The notes: generated by a model not told the origin, from the sequence alone. A DNA stretch of 11,529 bases from Chthonomonadales bacterium (GCA_038217285.1 JBBQPO010000202.1:1-11529), one strand, 5' to 3'. Shown: positions 1,015 to 11,099, counted from the first letter of the stretch. Made by a program: numbers and translations.

Positions 1015-1587
1015 ATGCGCGGAGAGGCCCGTGAAAAAATATTGGAGACAGCGTGCCGACTGTTCTATGAAAGCGGCCTCCATGCGACTGGTATCGACAC
1101 GATTGTGGCACAGTCGGGTGTCACCAAGATGACGCTCTACAAACACTTTGCCTCCAAGCAGGAGTTGATTCTGGCGGTGCTGCAGCGTCGCGATGAAGAG
1201 TGGCGTTGCTGGTTTCAGCAGGCGGTGGAAGCGCGGGCGGAGCAGCCTGCAGAGCGACTGCTCGCCCTCTTCGATGCGCTCAAGAGCTGGTTCGAGCAGG
1301 AGGATTTCAAAGGGTGCGCTTTCCTGAAAGCAGCGGCGGAGTATCCCGACCCGTCGCACCCGATCCACCGTATCGTGGTGGAGCATATCCGAAGGGTCGG
1401 TGACTATGTCGTGGGACTGACCACACAGGCGTGCGCCCGGAACCCGGCGGCCCTGGCCGACGCCCTCAACCTGCTTATCATGGGCGCGATCGCCATCGCC
1501 TTTGCAGGCGATCAACGTCAGATCGTGGAGAAAGCCCATGATTCGGCACGGGTGCTTTTAGTCGCCCACGGTGTCACTCTCCGATAA
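1015..1587 (+). CDS. TetR/AcrR family transcriptional regulator, 190 aa
   Basis: N-terminal HTH AREKILETACRLFYESGLHATGIDTIVAQSGVTKMTLYKHFASKQELI, plus an FKGCAF motif typical of a Cys-containing TetR subgroup. ATG 1015 follows purine-rich GGGAGAGAG. Confidence 0.93.
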   Translation: MRGEAREKILETACRLFYESGLHATGIDTIVAQSGVTKMTLYKHFASKQELILAVLQRRDEEWRCWFQQAVEARAEQPAERLLALFDALKSWFEQEDFKGCAFLKAAAEYPDPSHPIHRIVVEHIRRVGDYVVGLTTQACARNPAALADALNLLIMGAIAIAFAGDQRQIVEKAHDSARVLLVAHGVTLR

Positions 1588-1654: not shown

Positions 1655-1692
1655 GGTGATCCAGGCCGATGCCCTCTGTTCCAGGAGTATTC
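1655..1692 (+). repeat. Direct repeat copy 2, containing the AGGAG RBS of the DUF1003 gene
   Basis: GGTGATCCAGGCCGATGCCCTCTGTTCCAGGAGTATTC, 36/38 identical to 1..38. Confidence 0.9.
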
Positions 1693-1694
1693 CC

Positions 1695-2219
1695 ATGCGT
1701 CCCAATGTAACCGAGCCTACTATGTCCGGCCAGTCGTCTGCGAATGTCTCCCCGATTCTGCTTCCCGAGCCCAAGCTCTCTCGCCTCGATCGCATCGGAA
1801 TCGCTCTCATCGAAAAGTTCGGTTCAATGGGATTCGTCTTGATTGTGCTGGTGTGGACCATCTTGTGGTGCGGCTATAACATTCTTGCCTCGGAAGTGAA
1901 GTCCCTGCACTGGAAAGCCTTTGATCCGTTCCCCGCATTCGTAGCCTATCTGCTCGTTTGTGTGATGATCCAGATGTTTCTGCTGCCGCTTATCCTGGTC
2001 AAACAGAACCTACAAGCCAAACACGATGACGCCCACGCTGAATTCGATTTCCAGACGAACCTCAAAGCGGAAAAGAATATCTGCAAGGTGCTGGAACAGT
2101 TGGATAGGCGCAATAAGGCGCTTCTGGAGCTTGTGCCTCAGCAGTCGCACAACGTCGACAAACTGGCGAGCGCAACGGAAGAGAATCCTCAGCGAAATAG
2201 ATCCCAATCCTCAGTGTGA
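1695..2219 (+). CDS. DUF1003-like membrane protein, 174 aa
   Basis: DRIG...FGSMGF, hydrophobic helices, FDPFPAF, PLILVKQN and AEFDFQTNLKAE resemble DUF1003 motifs. AGGAG lies 7 nt before ATG 1695. Confidence 0.82.
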   Translation: MRPNVTEPTMSGQSSANVSPILLPEPKLSRLDRIGIALIEKFGSMGFVLIVLVWTILWCGYNILASEVKSLHWKAFDPFPAFVAYLLVCVMIQMFLLPLILVKQNLQAKHDDAHAEFDFQTNLKAEKNICKVLEQLDRRNKALLELVPQQSHNVDKLASATEENPQRNRSQSSV

Positions 2220-2287: not shown

Positions 2288-2671
2288 ATGAATCCACAGG
2301 ATCGGAATCCATTGGCGAACGAACGTCCAGACGTGGTCGCGATGTTCCGCGCGTTGGGAGATCCGACGCGGCTGCACATCTTCGAGTTTTTACGTTCGTG
2401 CTGCTGTCCGGTAGCCGTCGAGGAGTCCGGCGCCGTGCGGCCTGTCACCGGACCGACCGTCGGCGAGGTCTGCTGTCATGTGACAGGCGCCGAACAGATC
2501 AACTCGAAAATCTCGCATCACTTGAAGGAGCTGCGTCTGGCCGGTCTCATCACGGTCGAGCGGCGCGGCAAGAACATGATCTGCGGCGTGAACCGCGAAG
2601 CCGTCGCAGCGCTGGCCTCGTACCTGGCCCGCGAGATCTCGGACAACACAGAGAGCGGCTCTTGCTGCTGA
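2288..2671 (+). CDS. arsR: ArsR/SmtB family metalloregulator, Cys-rich
   Basis: FRALGDPTRLHIFEFL...TVGEVCC...ISHHLKELRLAGLITVERRGK winged-HTH signature. First gene of the ars operon. Confidence 0.92.
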   Translation: MNPQDRNPLANERPDVVAMFRALGDPTRLHIFEFLRSCCCPVAVEESGAVRPVTGPTVGEVCCHVTGAEQINSKISHHLKELRLAGLITVERRGKNMICGVNREAVAALASYLAREISDNTESGSCC

Positions 2672-2692
2672 CACATACGGGAGAAAATAGTA

Positions 2693-3577
2693 ATGGCAGA
2701 AACAGTCAAGCTTACGGATAGAAACGATGTACGCGATCTGGTACGCGAAAAGTACGGTGCAGCGGCCCTGACGGTCTTGAACGGCGAAGGCGCGGCGTGC
2801 TGTGGCGGCAATACGGGAGGCGGCAACGATGCGTGCTGTGGCGGCGACACTATCACAGGCGGTCTGTATGACGATGTAGAAGCCGCAAGCATCCCCGAGG
2901 CGGCGCTGCTGGCCTCCCTCGGATGCGGCAATCCTACAGCGCTGGCAGCGCTCAAGGGGGGCGAAGTCGTGCTCGATCTCGGTAGCGGGGGCGGTATCGA
3001 CGTGCTGCTCTCGGCAAGGCGGGTGGGCCCCACCGGATTTGCCTATGGTCTGGATATGACCGATGCCATGCTCGCGCTCGCCGAAAAGAACAAAGCGGAA
3101 AGCGGCGCGAAGAATGTGGCGTTCCTGAAAGGGCATATCGAAGAGGTACCCCTTCCCGACAACGCGGTCGATGTCATTATCTCCAACTGCGTGATCAACC
3201 TCTCTGCCGACAAAGACGCCGTCCTGCGCGAAGCCTTCCGCGTCCTGAAACCCGGCGGACGGTTTGCCGTCTCGGATGTGGTCGTGGAGGGGGAGCTTCC
3301 TCCGGCCGTGCGTGCCGATATGGAGGCTTATGTCGGCTGCGTGGCCGGTGCGCTGGAAGTGAACGACTATCTCGCCCGGCTCGCCAGGGCCGGCTTTGTA
3401 GACGCCTCGATCGAGCCGACCCGCCGCTATACCTTCGCAGACCTGGAAGAAGCAACCTGCTGCTCTCCCGAGGTGGCCGCACTGCCTGCGGAGGAAAAAG
3501 CCGCGCTCGATGGCCGCGTTATGGGAGCTTTCATCCGTGCCGTGAAGCCGGCGGCCTCCTGCTGCGAGCCGGCGTGA
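2693..3577 (+). CDS. arsM: Arsenite S-adenosylmethionine methyltransferase (Cys type)
   Basis: Contains SLGCGNP, VLDLGSGGGID, ISNCVINL, VLKPGGRFAVSD and YVGCVAGA, the canonical ArsM Cys motifs. RBS GGGAG. Confidence 0.95.
   Translation: MAETVKLTDRNDVRDLVREKYGAAALTVLNGEGAACCGGNTGGGNDACCGGDTITGGLYDDVEAASIPEAALLASLGCGNPTALAALKGGEVVLDLGSGGGIDVLLSARRVGPTGFAYGLDMTDAMLALAEKNKAESGAKNVAFLKGHIEEVPLPDNAVDVIISNCVINLSADKDAVLREAFRVLKPGGRFAVSDVVVEGELPPAVRADMEAYVGCVAGALEVNDYLARLARAGFVDASIEPTRRYTFADLEEATCCSPEVAALPAEEKAALDGRVMGAFIRAVKPAASCCEPA
2795..2845 (+). repeat. 15-bp direct repeat within arsM encoding ACCGG twice
   Basis: GCGTGCTGTGGCGGC at 2795..2809 and 2831..2845. Confidence 0.85.
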
Positions 3578-4341
3578 AGCCCTTCCTCGAAGCGAAGAGG
3601 GTTCCTGTGGACGACGGCATGATGCGCCGCTATACGGCGGAGTTTGTCGGCACATTCGGCATCGTGTTCGCTCCTGTGGCGCTCTCCGCCACAGGCAGCC
3701 TGCACGGCAGCGAAAGCGGACTGATGGCGGCCGCCTGGGTTTCTGGGCTCGCCGTGCTCGCGATGATCTACGCGCTCGGTCCTATCTCTGCGGCCCATTT
3801 CAACCCGGCCGTGACTCTGGGTTTCGCGCTCGCGGGGCGGTTCCCGTGGCGCTACGTTGTGCCCTACTGGATCGCGGAGTTCCTCGGCGGCATCGCTGCA
3901 GCGGCCCTGGCAGCCCTGCTCTTCGGCGGTGGGCATGGGGTCCATATTCCCGCCAACGGCCTGCTTGTTCGCGCCGTGGCGGTCGAGGCCGTGCTGACCT
4001 TCTTCCTGATGCTGGTCGTCATCGCGGTTGCGACCGATAAGCGGGCGAACGGCGCGATCCCCGGTCTCGCCATCGGGCTCACCGTCGTCTTCGACGTCCT
4101 GATCGGCGGTCCGGTCACGGGCGGCTCGATGAACCCGGCGCGCTCCCTTGGCCCCGCCCTTTTCGGCGGCCCAGCCGCGCTTGCCGTCTACTGGGTCTAC
4201 GTCGTCGGTCCTGTCCTGGGAGCGGTAGTGGCAGCCTGGCTCTACGAGCACATTCGTGGCGGCGAGCACCACGCACAGGGCGCGCCAAACGACATTTACG
4301 CAGCGCTGCAAGAGATCGAAGAGAAGGCCCACGAGGCGTAA
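3574..4341 (+). CDS. MIP family aquaporin/aquaglyceroporin, probable arsenical channel
   Basis: AEFVGTF, AHFNPAVT and GGSMNPARS (two NPA motifs) with hydrophobic helices. GTGA overlap with the arsM stop; the start could instead be 3607 or 3619. Confidence 0.93.
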   Translation: MKPFLEAKRVPVDDGMMRRYTAEFVGTFGIVFAPVALSATGSLHGSESGLMAAAWVSGLAVLAMIYALGPISAAHFNPAVTLGFALAGRFPWRYVVPYWIAEFLGGIAAAALAALLFGGGHGVHIPANGLLVRAVAVEAVLTFFLMLVVIAVATDKRANGAIPGLAIGLTVVFDVLIGGPVTGGSMNPARSLGPALFGGPAALAVYWVYVVGPVLGAVVAAWLYEHIRGGEHHAQGAPNDIYAALQEIEEKAHEA

Positions 4342-4951: not shown

Positions 4952-6739
4952 CTACGGAACGCGGGGGACGGAGAGATACGTCGTGTAACTTTCGGCCTTC
5001 ACCTTGTAGAACGGCAGAAAGGTCATCGTATTATGGTGCGTGTGGAACGTAGGAAGCCCGCCGGGGTGCTTTACAACGTCCACACCAGCTTTGCCTCCAG
5101 GAACCGAAACAGGCTTGTCGGAGAGAGCTACCAGGAGCAGTGGCCCGTAGAGCAGCGCCTGGCGGTCCGGCGTCTCGGAGGCGATGGCCTCGGAGTGCAG
5201 CGCCATCGGGAACGTGACCTGAAGCGTATCTCCCTCGTGCCATAACCGCTCCACTTCGAGGAACGTCCCCGGCACGGCCTTTACCTGCGTGACTTTGCCT
5301 CTGATTTTAACGGTTACAGGCTTCGCTGTCCAGCCAGGGACGCGCACATGCAGCGCAAAGCGCACAGGCTTTTGGGAATGCACCGTCAGCGTCGTCGTAT
5401 CTGTCTCCGGGTAGAGCGTGGTCTGCTCGACCGTGACAGCCTGCGGCCCCTCCTTCCAGTGCACCTGCGAAGGTGTGAAGAGGTTGACGTAGAGGCCGTG
5501 CGCAGCGTGGAAATAGATGTCGAGCGGATAGTCTGCGGTGATCTGTGCATACGTCCCCGAACAGCAGGGCCAGGCCGCGCCGAAGTAGGCTTTCTTGGTT
5601 CCGGAGCGATAGTTCGAATAGTAGAAGGTCTTGCCGTCCGGCTGCATGGGAAGCGTCGCGAGCATACCGTTGAAGAGGACGCGTTCCATGTTGTCGCCGT
5701 ATTTGGCGTCTCCGGTAAACCGCAGCAGATAGCGGTCGAGGTTGACGTTGGCGTAGGAGCCGCATGGCGTCTCGAAGTGGTTGTCGACGCTCTCGATGGA
5801 TTCTGCGAGCTTCCCCTGCCCCGGTGTCACGAACCGCTCGAGTGGCCCCCATCCGCCCGAAGCGTACATCTGCGTGGTGGTAAGGAACGTCCAGGCGTTC
5901 TCTATCGCCTTGAAGTACTTTTCATCGCCTGTCACTTCATAGGCTTTGGCCGCTGACAACAGGGTGTTGACATGGCTGTAGGCGTGATGGTCCGGTGTAA
6001 ACGCATTGATGCCATTTGCGAAGGGGTCGTAGTACTCCTTGCTGTAGTCGTACTCTTTCGCCATATCGAGATACCGCGGATCTTGCGTAAGCGCATAGCA
6101 GTTGTAGAGATTTTCGGGCAGCGTGTACCATTCGTCTCGTCGGCGCGGCAGGTTCTTCACCGCCCAGTCGGTCATCTGCTTGAGAACGACGAGTCCCTCC
6201 GCATTGCCGGTCAGCGTATAAGCGTCCCGCATCCCGATGCAGTTCTTATCGTAGAGGTAGTTCGGCCACTCCCGGAAGACCTTCTCGGACGAGTAGAAAT
6301 AGCCGTCTGGCGCTAAGGTTTCGTGGAAACCGTGCACCAGTCGGGCGACCTTCTCCTTATACCGCACATCTCCCGTATTGGCGTACATCCGGGCCAGGGC
6401 GGAGACATACTGCCCGAAAGGATGCGCTCCGGCGAAGCCGTCCGGATCGTACCAACCGCCCATCGGTTTGCCGGGCGCGGGAAGTCCGGCGCGTTTGCGG
6501 AAGCCGTTGAGCAGATTGTCCTCCGACAGCGATAGAAAGAAGTCGCGCGCTTCCAGGGCCTGGGTTCCCAGAGGGCCGCCTTTCAGAGTGACGTCCTGAT
6601 AGCCAAAGGGCTGCACGAGGCCCGAAGATCGGTGTGCCTCCAGAGCGACTGCCTTCTGGGCCGGGGCGCTCTGCTGGCAGAAGAGCCCTCCAGCAAGTAC
6701 AAGCAGGGCGCAAAGTCCTACTCCAGTCAACTTCTTCAT
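4952..6739 (-). CDS. Secreted glycoside hydrolase, GH127/GH146 (beta-L-arabinofuranosidase-like, DUF1680), 595 aa
   Basis: Signal peptide, then GGW...GQYVSALA, HAYSHV, YASGG, ETPCGSY, YGDNMER.LFN, WPCCSGT, LYVNLF, QTTLYP, RVPGW and YGPLLL motifs. Confidence 0.88.
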   Translation of the reverse strand: MKKLTGVGLCALLVLAGGLFCQQSAPAQKAVALEAHRSSGLVQPFGYQDVTLKGGPLGTQALEARDFFLSLSEDNLLNGFRKRAGLPAPGKPMGGWYDPDGFAGAHPFGQYVSALARMYANTGDVRYKEKVARLVHGFHETLAPDGYFYSSEKVFREWPNYLYDKNCIGMRDAYTLTGNAEGLVVLKQMTDWAVKNLPRRRDEWYTLPENLYNCYALTQDPRYLDMAKEYDYSKEYYDPFANGINAFTPDHHAYSHVNTLLSAAKAYEVTGDEKYFKAIENAWTFLTTTQMYASGGWGPLERFVTPGQGKLAESIESVDNHFETPCGSYANVNLDRYLLRFTGDAKYGDNMERVLFNGMLATLPMQPDGKTFYYSNYRSGTKKAYFGAAWPCCSGTYAQITADYPLDIYFHAAHGLYVNLFTPSQVHWKEGPQAVTVEQTTLYPETDTTTLTVHSQKPVRFALHVRVPGWTAKPVTVKIRGKVTQVKAVPGTFLEVERLWHEGDTLQVTFPMALHSEAIASETPDRQALLYGPLLLVALSDKPVSVPGGKAGVDVVKHPGGLPTFHTHHNTMTFLPFYKVKAESYTTYLSVPRVP

Positions 6740-7494
6740 CGATTTACTCTCTTTCCGGTGGTCTTACGTGCGACCACTTCCGCAACCATTACTTTTGGGT
6801 CTGTGGTTCTGGCGTTGCGCAATGCGCGAAGCAAGACCACCTCGCCAAACCCGGCGGCCCGAAACTCCTCAAGGAAAGCCCCGCTCTCCTTTGCGCCGGC
6901 AATTCAAGTGAACCAGTCAGCCGCGCTGTTTTGGCTTTCCGCAGGCAAGGGGCCGGTCAAGACAAGCTCCGCCGCATAGACAGATCCCCCTGTTTTGAGA
7001 ACGCGCGACAACTCAGAAAATATCTGCTCCCGGTAGGGATTCAGGTTGAAAATGCCGTTGATGAGGGCGACATCAATACTCGCGTCTTTGATCGGCAACT
7101 GTTCCGCGTCTGTTAGATATACGTTGACATTCGCAGCCCGCATCTCGGCTGCGGCCAGTCGGGCGCGGCCCGCCATCTCCGCACTAAAATCGATGGCGAT
7201 CACCTTGCCCTGCTCTCCGGTGCGTCTGGCCGCAATGAGCGTGTCCAGACCTGCCCCTGCGCCCAGGTCAAGAACGGTCGCTCCTGCCGGTATCCTGGCA
7301 AAGAGACTCACATTCGAGATACCGCAAAATCCTTCTACCGATGTGGCTGGGATCGTATCGAGCAAAGTAGACGGATAGCCTAAATCCTCCGCCAGGGCCC
7401 GTCCGGTGGGAAAAGGCAAATGGCGCGCGGTCTGCTGTGCGATCGAGGAATAGACATCTCTTACTCCGTCGCGGAGTGCGGTTGTGCCGTTCAT
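6736..7494 (-). CDS. ArsM-like class I SAM methyltransferase, probable selenoprotein (Sec at codon 197, TGA 6906..6904), 252 aa
   Basis: ATG 7494 with AGGAAGG RBS. Motifs FPTGRALAEDLGY, VLDLGAGAGLD, IDFSAEM, INGIFNL and VLKTGG. After DWFT-TGA the frame continues IAGAKESGAFLEEFRAAGFGEVVLLRALRNARTTDPKVMVAEVVARKTTGKRVNR*, homologous to the ArsM segment GCVAGALEVNDYLARLARAGF. The terminal TGA overlaps the GH127 ATG (ATGA). Confidence 0.88.
6871..6891 (-). promoter_or_regulatory. Candidate bacterial SECIS element of the methyltransferase
   Basis: The mRNA hairpin AAGGAGAGC-GGG-GCUUUCCUU (9 bp, one G-U) begins after 12 nt 3' of the UGA. The G-containing apical loop is at +22..24. Confidence 0.72.
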
Positions 7495-7565
7495 AAAAAA
7501 CCTTCCTGGCTCTGTCTTGAAGGAAGGATACCGGGCCAGGGTGAATAAAGCAAATACAGATTTAT

Positions 7566-7580
7566 TTATACAGCCTATAA
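7566..7580. promoter_or_regulatory. Candidate LysR binding box (T-N11-A)
   Basis: TTATA-CAGCC-TATAA dyad in the AT-rich 96-bp gap between the divergent methyltransferase and lysR genes. Confidence 0.5.
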
Positions 7581-7590
7581 GGAAAATATT

Positions 7591-8508
7591 ATGACAGAGA
7601 AATACAACCTTTACCCGCTTCATATCTTTCAGCTCGTGGCACGGCATAGCAGCGTCACCGGCGCTGCACAGGAGCTCTGCATCAGTCAACCTGCTGTCTC
7701 GTCTCACCTTAAAGCGCTGGAAGCCAGATACAAAGAGGCGCTTTTTGAGCGGACGCCGCGCGGTATGCTGCTCACGCCTGCCGGTGCGGCGGTCGCCGAG
7801 CACGCGAGCCGCATCTTTGCGCTCCTGGAAGAGATGGAAGCAGTGGTGAACGCCACACGCGGAGAGGTCAAGGGGATTGTGACCATGGCCGCCTCCAGTA
7901 CTCCTGGCGCCTACCTTGTTCCCCGGCTCCTGCGACGCTTTCAGGACCGCTATCCCGACGTGCAAGCGACACTCCTCGTCGGAGACAGCAGGGAGGTGCT
8001 TTCCTGGCTGCGAGATTACCATGCAGCGCTCGGTGTCGTCGGCGAAACGGACATGGAAGACGGACTGATCCGGGAGGAGATCGCGCAGGATGAACTGCGA
8101 CTCATGACAGCGGCGACGGACGATCTGTGTCGGAGGGAAGAGATCAAGGCGGAGCATCTTTACGGGCGTACGCTGTTCCTGCGGGAACCCGGCTCCAGTA
8201 CACGTGCCGGGGCGCAAACGCTCCTGTATGATTGGCAGAAAGACTTTGCACGGATCGTCGAACAGCACAGCATAGAAGCCATCAAGCAACAGGTCATCGC
8301 CGGGCTAGGCGTTGCCGTTCTCTCCTCCTGGGCTACCGAACTTGAAGAAAAGGCGGGTCTGCTCTGCCCTGTCCGGGATACCCGGTTTTGGCAGAGGCGT
8401 AAGTTTTACCTGGTGCGCCGCGCGGATCGCCCACTCCTCGGCGGAGCGGCGGCGCTCTGGGACTGTCTGGCCTCCTGCCCGCGTACATCCGGTGGTAGCC
8501 CTCCCTAG
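7591..8508 (+). CDS. LysR family transcriptional regulator (CysL/YeiE-like)
   Basis: HTH SVTGAAQELCISQPAVSSHLKALE...LFER...LTPAG. The effector domain has ASSTPGAYLVP, GDS and REPGSSTR. RBS TAAGGA. Confidence 0.93.
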   Translation: MTEKYNLYPLHIFQLVARHSSVTGAAQELCISQPAVSSHLKALEARYKEALFERTPRGMLLTPAGAAVAEHASRIFALLEEMEAVVNATRGEVKGIVTMAASSTPGAYLVPRLLRRFQDRYPDVQATLLVGDSREVLSWLRDYHAALGVVGETDMEDGLIREEIAQDELRLMTAATDDLCRREEIKAEHLYGRTLFLREPGSSTRAGAQTLLYDWQKDFARIVEQHSIEAIKQQVIAGLGVAVLSSWATELEEKAGLLCPVRDTRFWQRRKFYLVRRADRPLLGGAAALWDCLASCPRTSGGSPP

Positions 8509-8682
8509 CCCCACATGCGACCACCCTCTCTAGCGGTGTACTGCTGCGCTCTTTATGACTTCCCTTCTCGGCTCTACACTCGCAGGAAGAATATCGAGTC
8601 AGCGCGAACTAAAGGATAGGCAGAGTTAGGAAGGCCCACTGGCAGAACTTCGACGTTAACGGCTGGATTGAGGAGACAAACT

Positions 8683-9144
8683 ATGAGCGAACTGGTGAGC
8701 ATCGTTTACAAGCCGCGCAAGGCAACGCCTACGGAGGACGGCTATACGCGGGTGCCCCGGCAGCAGGCGCTGCTGGTGGCCGACTACGGCATCGAAGGCG
8801 ACGCCAAAGGCGGCAGCCCGAAACGCCAGCTGAATGTGATGTCGGTTCGCGCGGTGCAGGAGTTGACCGCAGAAGGTTTTCAGGGAGCGCCCGGCCAGTT
8901 GGGGGAGCAGTTGATTGTGGCGGGTGTGGAGGTGGACACCCTACCACTTGGAACTCGATTATACATCGGCGAGCAGGCCTGTGTGGAGATTGTGGAGCCG
9001 CGCACCGGCTGCGGCAAGTTCGAGCGGTATCAGGGCAGATCGCCCCAGGAAGCAGCGGGACGCATGGGTATGATGGCCCGTGTAGTAATAGGCGGGGAGA
9101 TTGCGGTCGGCGATCCTGTGAGGGTCGCAGACAGCGTCCGATGA
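8683..9144 (+). CDS. MOSC domain protein (YiiM-like), 153 aa
   Basis: GIEGD, RQLNVM, PGQLGEQL, PRTGCGK (conserved Cys) and ARVVIGGEIAVGD. GAGGAG RBS before ATG 8683. Confidence 0.88.
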   Translation: MSELVSIVYKPRKATPTEDGYTRVPRQQALLVADYGIEGDAKGGSPKRQLNVMSVRAVQELTAEGFQGAPGQLGEQLIVAGVEVDTLPLGTRLYIGEQACVEIVEPRTGCGKFERYQGRSPQEAAGRMGMMARVVIGGEIAVGDPVRVADSVR

Positions 9145-9174: not shown

Positions 9175-9903
9175 TCACTCCATGTGGAAGGAGACGATTC
9201 CTTCGGTGGTGGTGAGCAGCAAATTGAACTTTTGCCTGTCGAAGGTGCGCGGGAGCTGCACCCGCAGGCGCATCAGACGGGTGGCTCCCATCGGACTTTT
9301 GTGGAGAGAGCCGTCTCCGGGAGAGCTGTTGATTCCATAGACGACGAAACCCTGCGAACAGAGCAGTTCCAGGATACGGGCCACGGTTTCGCTGGACTCA
9401 TGCACTTCGATATCGATATTCTGGACCGGCTGCACAATTTTCAGGACGTATTCCAGGCGCTGCACCAGGGTCAGGGTGACCAGTACGATACCGGTCGTCA
9501 GGATCGCGAGTTCGCCGAGGCGCGGGCTGGCTCCGAGGGTGATTCCGATGGCGGCCGTCGCCCAGATGCTGGCGGCGGAGGTCAGGCCGCGCACGGTGAC
9601 GCCGTCGCGCAGAATGGCTCCCGCCCCCAGAAATCCGATCCCGGAGACGATCTGCGCCGCGATATGCCCCGGATCGCCCCGCATTCCGCCGCGCACCCCG
9701 AGGCCGATCTCCACAGAGGTTATCGTCAGGATTGTCGATCCGACGCAGACCAGGATGTGCGTTCGCAGCCCTGCCGGATTGCCGTGCCACTGCCGCTCCA
9801 GGCCGATGAGTCCGCCGAGCAGCACCGCCAGCAGCGTAACGACCCCTTGGCCTCCGAACGACGACGGATCTATACGATGCCCGAAAAACAGGTCGCTATC
9901 CAC
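9175..9903 (-). CDS. mgtC: MgtC/SapB family membrane protein, 242 aa
   Basis: LGGLIGLER, AGLRTHILV, DPGHIAAQIVSGIGFLGAGAI and GLTSAASIW motifs. GTG 9903 is preceded by GGAGGAGG at 5 nt. Confidence 0.92.
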   Translation of the reverse strand: MDSDLFFGHRIDPSSFGGQGVVTLLAVLLGGLIGLERQWHGNPAGLRTHILVCVGSTILTITSVEIGLGVRGGMRGDPGHIAAQIVSGIGFLGAGAILRDGVTVRGLTSAASIWATAAIGITLGASPRLGELAILTTGIVLVTLTLVQRLEYVLKIVQPVQNIDIEVHESSETVARILELLCSQGFVVYGINSSPGDGSLHKSPMGATRLMRLRVQLPRTFDRQKFNLLLTTTEGIVSFHME

Positions 9904-9923
9904 GCGCACCTCCTCCGACCGAC

Positions 9924-10019: not shown

Positions 10020-11099
10020 GTGAACATCCGCAAGGCCACCACGCTGTACGAGCAGTGGCTCGGCAGCTTTACTCCGTTGATCGCGCCGGACCTGGATTTC
10101 AAACATCAGCAGATGGCGACCGGGGCGTTCCCGTTCTTACGCTCCACCTTCTACCGCTGGATGCAGGTCTGGCCCGACGTCTGCCACGAGTTGGCGACCG
10201 CGCCGACCGTGCTCTCCGTCGGGGATCTGCATGTGGAGAACTTCGGTACCTGGCGCGACCGGGAGGGACGCCTGGTCTGGGGGGTGAACGACTTCGATGA
10301 GACGGCCCACCTGCCCTACACCAACGATCTGGTGCGCCTGACGACCAGCGCCCACCTGGCTATCGAGGCCAACCATCTCTGTGTGACGTGCGTGGCGGCG
10401 GGCGCGGCGATTCTCTCCGGTTACCGCGCCGGTCTGAAGGCGGGCGGGCGGCCCTTCGTTCTCGCGGAAGACCACACATGGCTGCGCAGCATTGCGACCA
10501 GCCACCTGCGGGATCCCGTCGCTTACTGGCAGAAGTTGAACGCCCTGCCGGACGTCAAACTCAATGTCCCGGAAACCGCCTCGAATGCGCTCGAGCACAT
10601 GCTGCCCATCGTGGGAATCCCGTATGTCGTGAAGTCACGCATCGCCGGGCTGGGCAGTCTGGGTCATCCGCGCTATGTGGCTCTCGGCGACTATCAGGGC
10701 GGCAGGTTTGCACGCGAAGCGAAGGCGCTGGTGCCCTCTTCCGCGGTCTGGGCGCGGGATACGATGGACGCACCGGAGATCTTCTATCAGACGATCATTG
10801 ATCGGGCTGTGCGCGCCATAGACCCCACTGTGCAGTTGCAGGGACACTGGATCGTGCGACGACTCGCTCCGGACTGCGCGCGAATCGAGTTGGCCTCGCT
10901 GCCAGAGGAGCGGGCGGAGACGCAACTGCTCTATGCCATGGGTTGGGAAACTGCCAATATCCATCTGGGCACGAAGGGCATCGCGAGAGAGGTGCTGCGG
11001 GATCTGCAGAAGCGCAAAGGCAAATGGCTGGATACGGCGGCGCAGGCGATGGCCAGGGCGACAACGGCGGACTGGGAAGCTTGGAAACGGCAGAAGTAG
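10020..11099 (+). CDS. DUF2252 family protein (kinase-like fold), 359 aa
   Basis: FPFLRSTF, VGDLHVENFG, NDFDE and AGLGSLG motifs. AAAGGA lies upstream of the GTG. Confidence 0.85.
   Translation: MNIRKATTLYEQWLGSFTPLIAPDLDFKHQQMATGAFPFLRSTFYRWMQVWPDVCHELATAPTVLSVGDLHVENFGTWRDREGRLVWGVNDFDETAHLPYTNDLVRLTTSAHLAIEANHLCVTCVAAGAAILSGYRAGLKAGGRPFVLAEDHTWLRSIATSHLRDPVAYWQKLNALPDVKLNVPETASNALEHMLPIVGIPYVVKSRIAGLGSLGHPRYVALGDYQGGRFAREAKALVPSSAVWARDTMDAPEIFYQTIIDRAVRAIDPTVQLQGHWIVRRLAPDCARIELASLPEERAETQLLYAMGWETANIHLGTKGIAREVLRDLQKRKGKWLDTAAQAMARATTADWEAWKRQK

Follow-up and report, generated by a model that had tools for sequence, protein, structure and literature searches.

Two divergent genes occupy positions 6736-8508 of an 11,529-nt stretch of DNA from a Chthonomonadales bacterium (GCA_038217285.1 JBBQPO010000202.1:1-11529; this whole stretch is hereafter called the window). 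One encodes an ArsM-like, S-adenosylmethionine (SAM)-dependent methyltransferase with a predicted selenocysteine (Sec), the other a LysR-type transcriptional regulator (Table 1). An initial annotation, made from the sequence of the window, had described an AT-rich gap of 96 bp with a T-N11-A dyad between the two genes as well as a MOSC gene following lysR, and all of these elements were found where it had placed them, with correct gene calls. Based on comparisons with related loci, we consider it probable (about 0.6) that the methyltransferase and lysR form a two-gene unit, in which the LysR protein would bind a conserved AT-rich operator in the gap and, when bound, would control the divergent promoter of the selenoprotein gene. 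The UGA codon of the latter would be recoded with the aid of a downstream hairpin and of the selA, selB, selD, and tRNA-Sec genes of the host. The sole conserved reactive residue of the methyltransferase, Sec197, is located where ArsM has its arsenic-binding Cys224.

The reading frame of the methyltransferase starts on the minus strand with an ATG at 7494 and runs to a TGA at 6904-6906, beyond which 55 open codons follow up to a second TGA at 6736-6738. In an alignment to the CmArsM structures (PDB 4fr0/4kw7), U197 corresponds to Cys224, and canonical ArsM proteins have a Cys at the position of the TGA codon. A single TGA is present at the same codon in 6/6 orthologs from other species genomes (57-63% identity). 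Likewise, 29 metagenome loci with orthologs (at least 49% identity) include 28 that span the site, and the TGA was found in 28/28. The sequence after the TGA (48-55 codons) is conserved in all orthologs. Moreover, 111 of the best 120 database homologs have a length of 185-210 amino acids and end at the UGA codon, indicating that gene callers cut them there, while three full-length database entries have a W at the Sec position, which we infer to be the TGA printed as Trp by the gene caller. Since gene callers truncate this methyltransferase family at the UGA, environmental 'arsM' surveys may misclassify such genes.

In bacteria, the selenocysteine insertion sequence (SECIS) is a stem-loop shortly downstream of the UGA. 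The candidate hairpin of the window starts 13 nt 3' of the UGA, and its pairing is kept in 94.2% of 240 cells (30 orthologs), compared to 50-66% when the partner strand was slid. Compensatory changes were found at three pairs (12 cells), and the observed covariation score was reached by 0/500 shuffles. It should be noted, however, that the stem lies within conserved coding sequence and that constraint on the encoded A-K-E-G-G-A-F-L explains part of this conservation. The single-sequence fold of the region (z-score 0.31) is uninformative alone, and an Rfam scan of the whole window identified no SECIS or other relevant family, its sole match being a chance-level PreQ1-III. The machinery for Sec incorporation was identified in the host genome, with SelB (396 bits), SelA (523 bits), SelD (362 bits), and tRNA-Sec (73 bits) all scoring above the curated cut-offs, and the host selD gene carries an in-frame TGA of its own. 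On contig C99 (2297-8015), the genes for tRNA-Sec, the TGA-containing SelD, and SelA are clustered; selB is located on contig C189. It is close to certain that the TGA at 6904-6906 encodes selenocysteine, and the presence of Sec in the methyltransferase, which had been claimed by the initial annotation, is borne out by the alignment to Cys224, the frame beyond the TGA, the covarying hairpin, and the Sec machinery.

The methyltransferase matches Pfam Methyltransf_31 (8.3e-24). Its AlphaFold model (predicted local distance difference test 87.7, predicted template modelling score 0.89) resembles the SAM- and arsenic-binding domain fold of CmArsM and AS3MT (4fr0, 4fs8, 6cx6, and 8xt7; template modelling score 0.66-0.70), and the ten best PDB matches of the model are all ArsM entries, with scores of up to 0.70. 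The arsenic-binding cysteines of ArsM are Cys72, Cys174, and Cys224, plus Cys44. While the window enzyme shares a reactive residue at the Cys224 position with CmArsM and AS3MT, this residue is Sec instead of Cys, the C-terminal domain is missing, and the HMMER alignment places T30 at Cys44, I59 at Cys72, and G147, which is found in all orthologs, at Cys174. In line with these differences, the enzyme scored 163.6 bits on the ArsM model NF008823, below the cut-off of 263, as compared to 338.9 bits for the canonical ArsM of the window. The position of C57 is occupied by A, T, V, or S, but never by Cys, in the metagenome orthologs and by F in a homolog with 92% identity, which rules out a C57-U197 selenenylsulfide pair as a conserved feature. 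Because equivalents of Cys44, Cys72, and Cys174 are absent and C57 is not conserved, Sec197 is the only conserved reactive residue. Without these three cysteines, the protein is, as judged from its sequence, not a canonical three-cysteine arsenite methyltransferase. Instead, its presumed substrate is a soft chalcogen or metalloid (a Se, Te, or As species), which would be bound by Sec197 and methylated.

The relation between the residues at positions 197 and 147 was followed through 80 metagenome loci (L074-L153); of the 84 alignments obtained, both positions could be read in 79. Sec at position 197 was combined with Gly at position 147 in 51 alignments and with Cys in 0, while Cys at position 197 was accompanied by Cys in 20 alignments and by Gly in 8. 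Thus, the TGA was seen only in forms that lack an equivalent of Cys174, although this is to be taken as a pattern and not as a statistic, since two peptide patterns served to select the loci and some of the sequences are related to one another. Within the same loci, several ArsM-like subfamilies without equivalents of Cys72 and Cys174 have a TGA at the Cys224 position (motifs WFA-U-IAGAKEG, LWTG-U-IAGALLE, WFR-U/C-IGGALPE, WSD-U-IAGAVTR, and WFQ-U-IGGA), and all 20 forms with a Cys174 equivalent have Cys there.

Searching the genome contigs with the methyltransferase alone returned only distant methyltransferases (29-41% identity). A second Sec paralog (34-37% identity) follows the methyltransferase in the genomes G021 and G045; in the window's own genome, no such paralog was found at E<=1e-20. 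They are encoded separately in G021 (L061), whereas both loci of G045 (L062:9277-10848 and L063:7998-9569) have two ArsM-like domains joined into a single reading frame of about 524 amino acids with two TGAs (U197 and U466/467), which would constitute a tandem double selenoprotein.

The LysR protein contains the expected Pfam domains (HTH_1, 5.1e-21; LysR_substrate, 3e-35). Using tblastn, an ortholog (54-72% identity) was found divergent from the methyltransferase at 5/6 of the other species-genome loci, so that, together with the window, this arrangement is present at 6/7 loci, with gaps of 72-111 bp. The other flanking genes vary from locus to locus, and the pair occurs in three taxonomic families. 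In a quick IQ-TREE phylogeny, the LysR-linked methyltransferases and the one at locus L069 form a single clade (SH-like approximate likelihood ratio test 97). The linkage appears to go back to roughly one origin and to have been retained afterwards across the three families. Named metagenome relatives of both proteins are labelled as Terriglobales, Acidobacteria, Blastocatellia, and Chthonomonadales, and database matches to the LysR protein at over 60% identity number in the hundreds. Furthermore, eight metagenome contigs (sizes 2740, 13127, 2455, 10720, 3447, 9268, 16607, and 2737) probably carry both genes, as the same contig sizes occur in both match lists.

With a GC content of 37.5%, compared to 60.1% for the window, the gap between the two genes is matched in AT-richness by only 0.5% of all 96-bp segments of the window. 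It contains a perfect palindrome, TTATA-N5-TATAA, with T-N11-A as its core. While T-N11-A by itself is readily expected by chance, the palindrome has no second match in the window even with one mismatch allowed, and at least one match was obtained in 5/200 shuffles. Its half adjoining lysR, TTAT (7577-7580, minus strand), is invariant in 8/8 intergenic regions. The putative promoter of the methyltransferase consists of a -35 element TTGCTT (7553-7548) and a -10 element TATCCT (7530-7525) on the minus strand, separated by a 17-nt spacer; TTG..TTA at -35 and TA..CT at -10 are invariant in 8/8 aligned intergenic regions. Another promoter, which was proposed by a consensus scan and overlaps the lysR ATG, was judged implausible. 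LysR probably regulates the divergent methyltransferase, as the initial annotation had suggested, a view backed by the linkage at 6/7 species-genome loci and by an operator and promoter conserved across 8 loci.

A reverse search with the LysR protein, covering 68 genomes of the order and a phylum sample of 401 genomes, revealed 8 loci in 7 genomes at an identity of at least 54%. Six of these loci face the Sec methyltransferase, and the remaining two, in G041 and G042, face a gene for a rhodanese of 112-114 amino acids (L157:2613-2954 and L158:1093-1428) that has a TGA at the active-site Cys, within a U-N-R-G loop, and matches the Pfam model Rhodanese across the TGA (1.4e-24 and 3.2e-22). The operator and the -35 element are kept at these two loci as well. 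Hence, at 8/8 loci of the LysR clade, the divergent gene has a TGA in frame at a catalytic Cys position, and these genes belong to two unrelated families. Furthermore, the best NCBIfam match of the window LysR is NF040786 ('selenium metabolism-associated LysR'), which is also the top match of the scanned orthologs at L062 and L157 (199.5 and 207.7 bits, below the cut-off). Two metagenome loci point the same way: at L123, a different LysR (238.9 bits on NF040786) is divergent from a methyltransferase ortholog, and at L094 a selD gene is part of the gene row of another ortholog. As the genes divergent from this clade encode two unrelated selenoproteins and its best curated match is a selenium-associated LysR family, we see roughly even odds that LysR answers a selenium-related signal, which could be either selenium supply or selenium stress.

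Around the two rhodanese loci, it was observed that a gene for a membrane protein of the fatty-acid-hydroxylase family comes after the Sec rhodanese in both G041 and G042 and that, in the long leader at L157, a stretch of 15 nt is directly repeated (at about 2477-2491 and again at 2544-2558). The metagenome locus L094:2744-5714 comprises consecutive genes in the same orientation for ArsR, SelD, an exporter of the TauE family, and an ortholog of the Sec methyltransferase; SelD scores 324.5 bits there, and its reading frame begins only at position 39 of the model, as would be expected after truncation at a TGA further upstream. At L064, a TauE gene lies in the operon on the lysR side. In two metagenome contigs, a gene for an Rv1681-like radical SAM protein (285-302 bits, below the cut-off of 380; L078:3794-4612 and L087:1149-1964) immediately precedes the ortholog of the Sec methyltransferase, and a gene of the PNP_UDP_1 phosphorylase family adjoins the ortholog at L068 and L093.

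Several observations weigh against the proposed unit or its selenium link. The window LysR scores 191.9 bits on NF040786, below the cut-off of 250, and two other LysR genes of the host score higher on the same model (229.6 and 217.8 bits), so that this score alone does not discriminate. One of these two faces a gene for a 427-aa polytopic membrane protein (contig C238), the other an aconitase gene; the membrane protein is presumably YeiH-like, and the LysR beside it is not the gene of the window. LysR homologs at 45-46% identity (G005 and G006) face no recognizable selenoprotein gene. Of the 7 genomes carrying the clade, 5 have a SelB above its cut-off, G031 has a partial one (222.5 bits, below the cut-off), and none was found in G045, which is 83% complete; with SelB in 51/68 genomes of the order, a shared occurrence of the clade and the Sec trait is of little informative value. 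In addition, genes for metal and metalloid resistance (ArsR, MerR, RND and CDF efflux, ChrA) are frequent neighbors, so that a toxic-metalloid signal fits as well as a selenium signal. Regarding the linkage itself, the methyltransferase at L069 lacks a LysR, and, as the linked methyltransferases form one clade, the six linked loci count as roughly a single independent case. The metagenome orthologs fall outside this clade, and a LysR of the window type was found in 0/12 of their loci with at least 700 bp of upstream sequence; only one of these, L123, has a LysR at all, the distant one mentioned above. Finally, the conserved elements at 7525-7553 were not among the sites proposed by the consensus scan for promoters, and the -35 and -10 assignment therefore rests on their conservation.

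Different explanations were considered for the signal and the substrate. According to the initial annotation, a CysL/YeiE-like LysR would sense a sulfur or selenium oxyanion such as sulfite or selenite and turn on a selenium/metalloid methylation and detoxification module comprising the methyltransferase and MOSC, which we regard as doubtful. At the level of the broad LysR group, the assignment to the CysL/YeiE type holds, given that the nearest solved structures are 5y2v, 5z72, and 8sbh (CbbR/CcpC/YeiE group), the last being the YeiE effector domain, and that YeiE is among the NCBIfam matches; at a finer level it does not, with 149.9 bits on the YeiE model NF040889 against a cut-off of 480. 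The conserved linkage of LysR and methyltransferase, the TauE-family anion exporters at the related loci L064 and L094, and the common resistance genes nearby would all suit an oxyanion sensor, but MOSC does not follow the pair, as MOSC homologs are absent from all 8 related methyltransferase loci and, conversely, neither LysR nor the methyltransferase was encountered within 1.5 kb of the MOSC ortholog at 13 loci. Gene neighborhoods thus support the proposed linkage of the methyltransferase with LysR and not that with MOSC. Moreover, in two genomes the partner of this LysR clade is a different, unrelated selenoprotein gene. This speaks against a sensor specific for the substrate of the methyltransferase and in favor of a selenium-related signal.

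A further-reaching version of the selenium link, which is tentative and in our view unlikely, holds that the clade lies outside the curated LysR_Se and is a selenium sensor switching on selenoproteins, and that the methyltransferase is a dedicated selenium methyltransferase with selenide held as a Se-Se adduct on Sec197. Enzymes that handle reactive selenium would be under its control, depending on the genome either the Sec rhodanese or one to two Sec methyltransferases of the cysteine-less, ArsM-like type. If true, this would represent an uncharacterized route of selenium volatilization or detoxification that is separate from arsenic methylation. Less probable still is a selenocysteine arsenite methyltransferase, a second ArsM beside the one at 2693-3577, with LysR answering arsenic. 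While the ArsM fold with Sec at the Cys224 position, the canonical ars operon 3 kb away, the ArsR genes that adjoin the pair in L062 and an ortholog in L094, and the listing of 'arsenite methyltransferase, UxxG' as a selenoprotein in the table covered from one review (PMC13188914) fit such an enzyme, the other arsenic-binding cysteines are replaced, C57 offers no conserved substitute, the NF008823 score stays below the cut-off that the true ArsM of the window exceeds, and none of the 79 readable alignments combines Sec with an equivalent of Cys174. The two-gene unit is also to be weighed against an adjacency without regulatory meaning, with LysR regulating itself or another gene and the TGA being a true stop or a pseudogene lesion. 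We consider this very improbable: although the linked loci form one clade, the pair persists in three families with varied flanks and a conserved operator and promoter, and the TGA, the codons beyond it, and the covarying hairpin are kept in the orthologs.

Lists of selenoproteins have included Sec ArsM-like methyltransferases for years, and Fomenko et al. 2007 is reportedly the original reference for the UxxG arsenite methyltransferase selenoprotein. In the passages covered, the reviews PMC13188914 and PMC9312934 list 'arsenite methyltransferase' UxxG selenoproteins as well as multi-Sec methyltransferase fusions, the latter credited to Haft & Tolstoy 2025. Like the UxxG selenoproteins, the window enzyme has an ArsM-type SAM domain, with Sec in U-I-A-G at the Cys224 position. 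Its best NCBIfam matches are selenocysteine ArsM-type families, all under their cut-offs (NF047649, 182/510 bits; NF041536, 172/460; NF041537, 160/575); unlike the members of these families, it is a single-domain, single-Sec protein without AhpD, DUF2284, or UXPK-star tail. For Sec ArsM-like forms that lack the arsenic-binding cysteines, the reviewed literature passages do not give a substrate.

On the regulator side, the LysR_Se subfamily is described, in the parts covered of Lin et al. 2015 (PMC5322559), as adjoining selA/B/D, with HrsM as an archaeal member and a subfamily-specific proline in the substrate-binding domain (supplementary figure S5). The window LysR resembles this subfamily, as far as represented there and by NF040786, in being located beside a selenium-related gene in a Sec-decoding host and in having NF040786 as its best match, but it differs in scoring under the NF040786 cut-off and in its clade adjoining methyltransferase and rhodanese selenoprotein genes rather than selA, selB, or selD. 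Sec-containing rhodanese-like selenoproteins are likewise included in the review table covered (PMC13188914); those of G041 and G042 lie outside the window and represent an alternative target of the same LysR clade. Literature searches yielded no description of a LysR-Sec methyltransferase pair in the passages covered, which come from the two reviews, Lin et al. 2015, and a database paper. Thus, selenocysteine ArsM-like enzymes and LysR_Se are already known, and the word 'undescribed', used by the initial annotation for a selenium or metalloid system, was too strong, while their pairing and the cysteine-less branch seem to be new. A dedicated regulator together with a defined 96-bp control region provides an experimental handle on the enzyme, as whatever induces the promoter is probably the substrate of the enzyme or the selenium status of the cell, or else something in close connection with one of them.

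Table 1. Features of the window, with positions counted from its first nucleotide.
Feature	Position	Strand	Remark
TetR regulator	1045-1587		
DUF1003 protein	1656-2219		
ArsR, ArsM, MIP/aquaporin-type channel operon	2288-4341		canonical ars operon
Metallophosphoesterase, broken	4375-about 4850		
GH127-family glycoside hydrolase, 595 aa	4952-6739	minus	
ArsM-like SAM-dependent methyltransferase, predicted selenoprotein, 252 aa, Sec at residue 197	6736-7494	minus	
SECIS-like hairpin	6872-6890	minus	8-bp stem, G-rich 3-nt loop
In-frame UGA, predicted to be read as selenocysteine (U197)	6904-6906	minus	equivalent of CmArsM Cys224
Divergent control region, 96 bp	7495-7590		
Putative sigma-70-type methyltransferase promoter	7525-7553	minus	
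Candidate LysR recognition site, perfect dyad	7566-7580		
LysR-type transcriptional regulator, 305 aa	7591-8508	plus	divergent from methyltransferase
MOSC gene	8683-9144	plus	
MgtC	9175-9909	minus	
DUF2252	10020-11099		

The MOSC gene (PF03473, 1.9e-11) begins 174 bp after the lysR stop codon, and a weak terminator-like hairpin (8531-8547) lies between the two. Its orthologs occur in 17/42 genomes of the family, mostly in genomes without the LysR-methyltransferase pair, and in G031, G041, G042, and G045 the MOSC gene is located on other contigs. MOSC is a chance neighbor and stands outside the unit. On the other side, the ATG of the GH127 gene (6737-6739) overlaps the stop codon of the methyltransferase in a 4-nt ATGA, and the two genes are therefore probably co-transcribed. 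A GH127 copy (73% identity) follows the methyltransferases at one other locus only, L063. The hydrolase does not belong to the conserved unit, and a functional link is not evident.

The Sec methyltransferase unit is separate from the ArsR-ArsM-aquaporin operon, in agreement with its independence from ArsR in the initial annotation. Between the two, the metallophosphoesterase gene consists of an N-terminal part of 103 amino acids in one frame, ended by a TGA, and a C-terminal-like stretch of about 55 amino acids in another. Its middle is missing, which probably reflects either a pseudogene or an error in the assembly. The ArsM of the operon is canonical, with Cys-rich N- and C-termini and an NF008823 score above the cut-off, and its stop codon overlaps the start codon of the channel gene.

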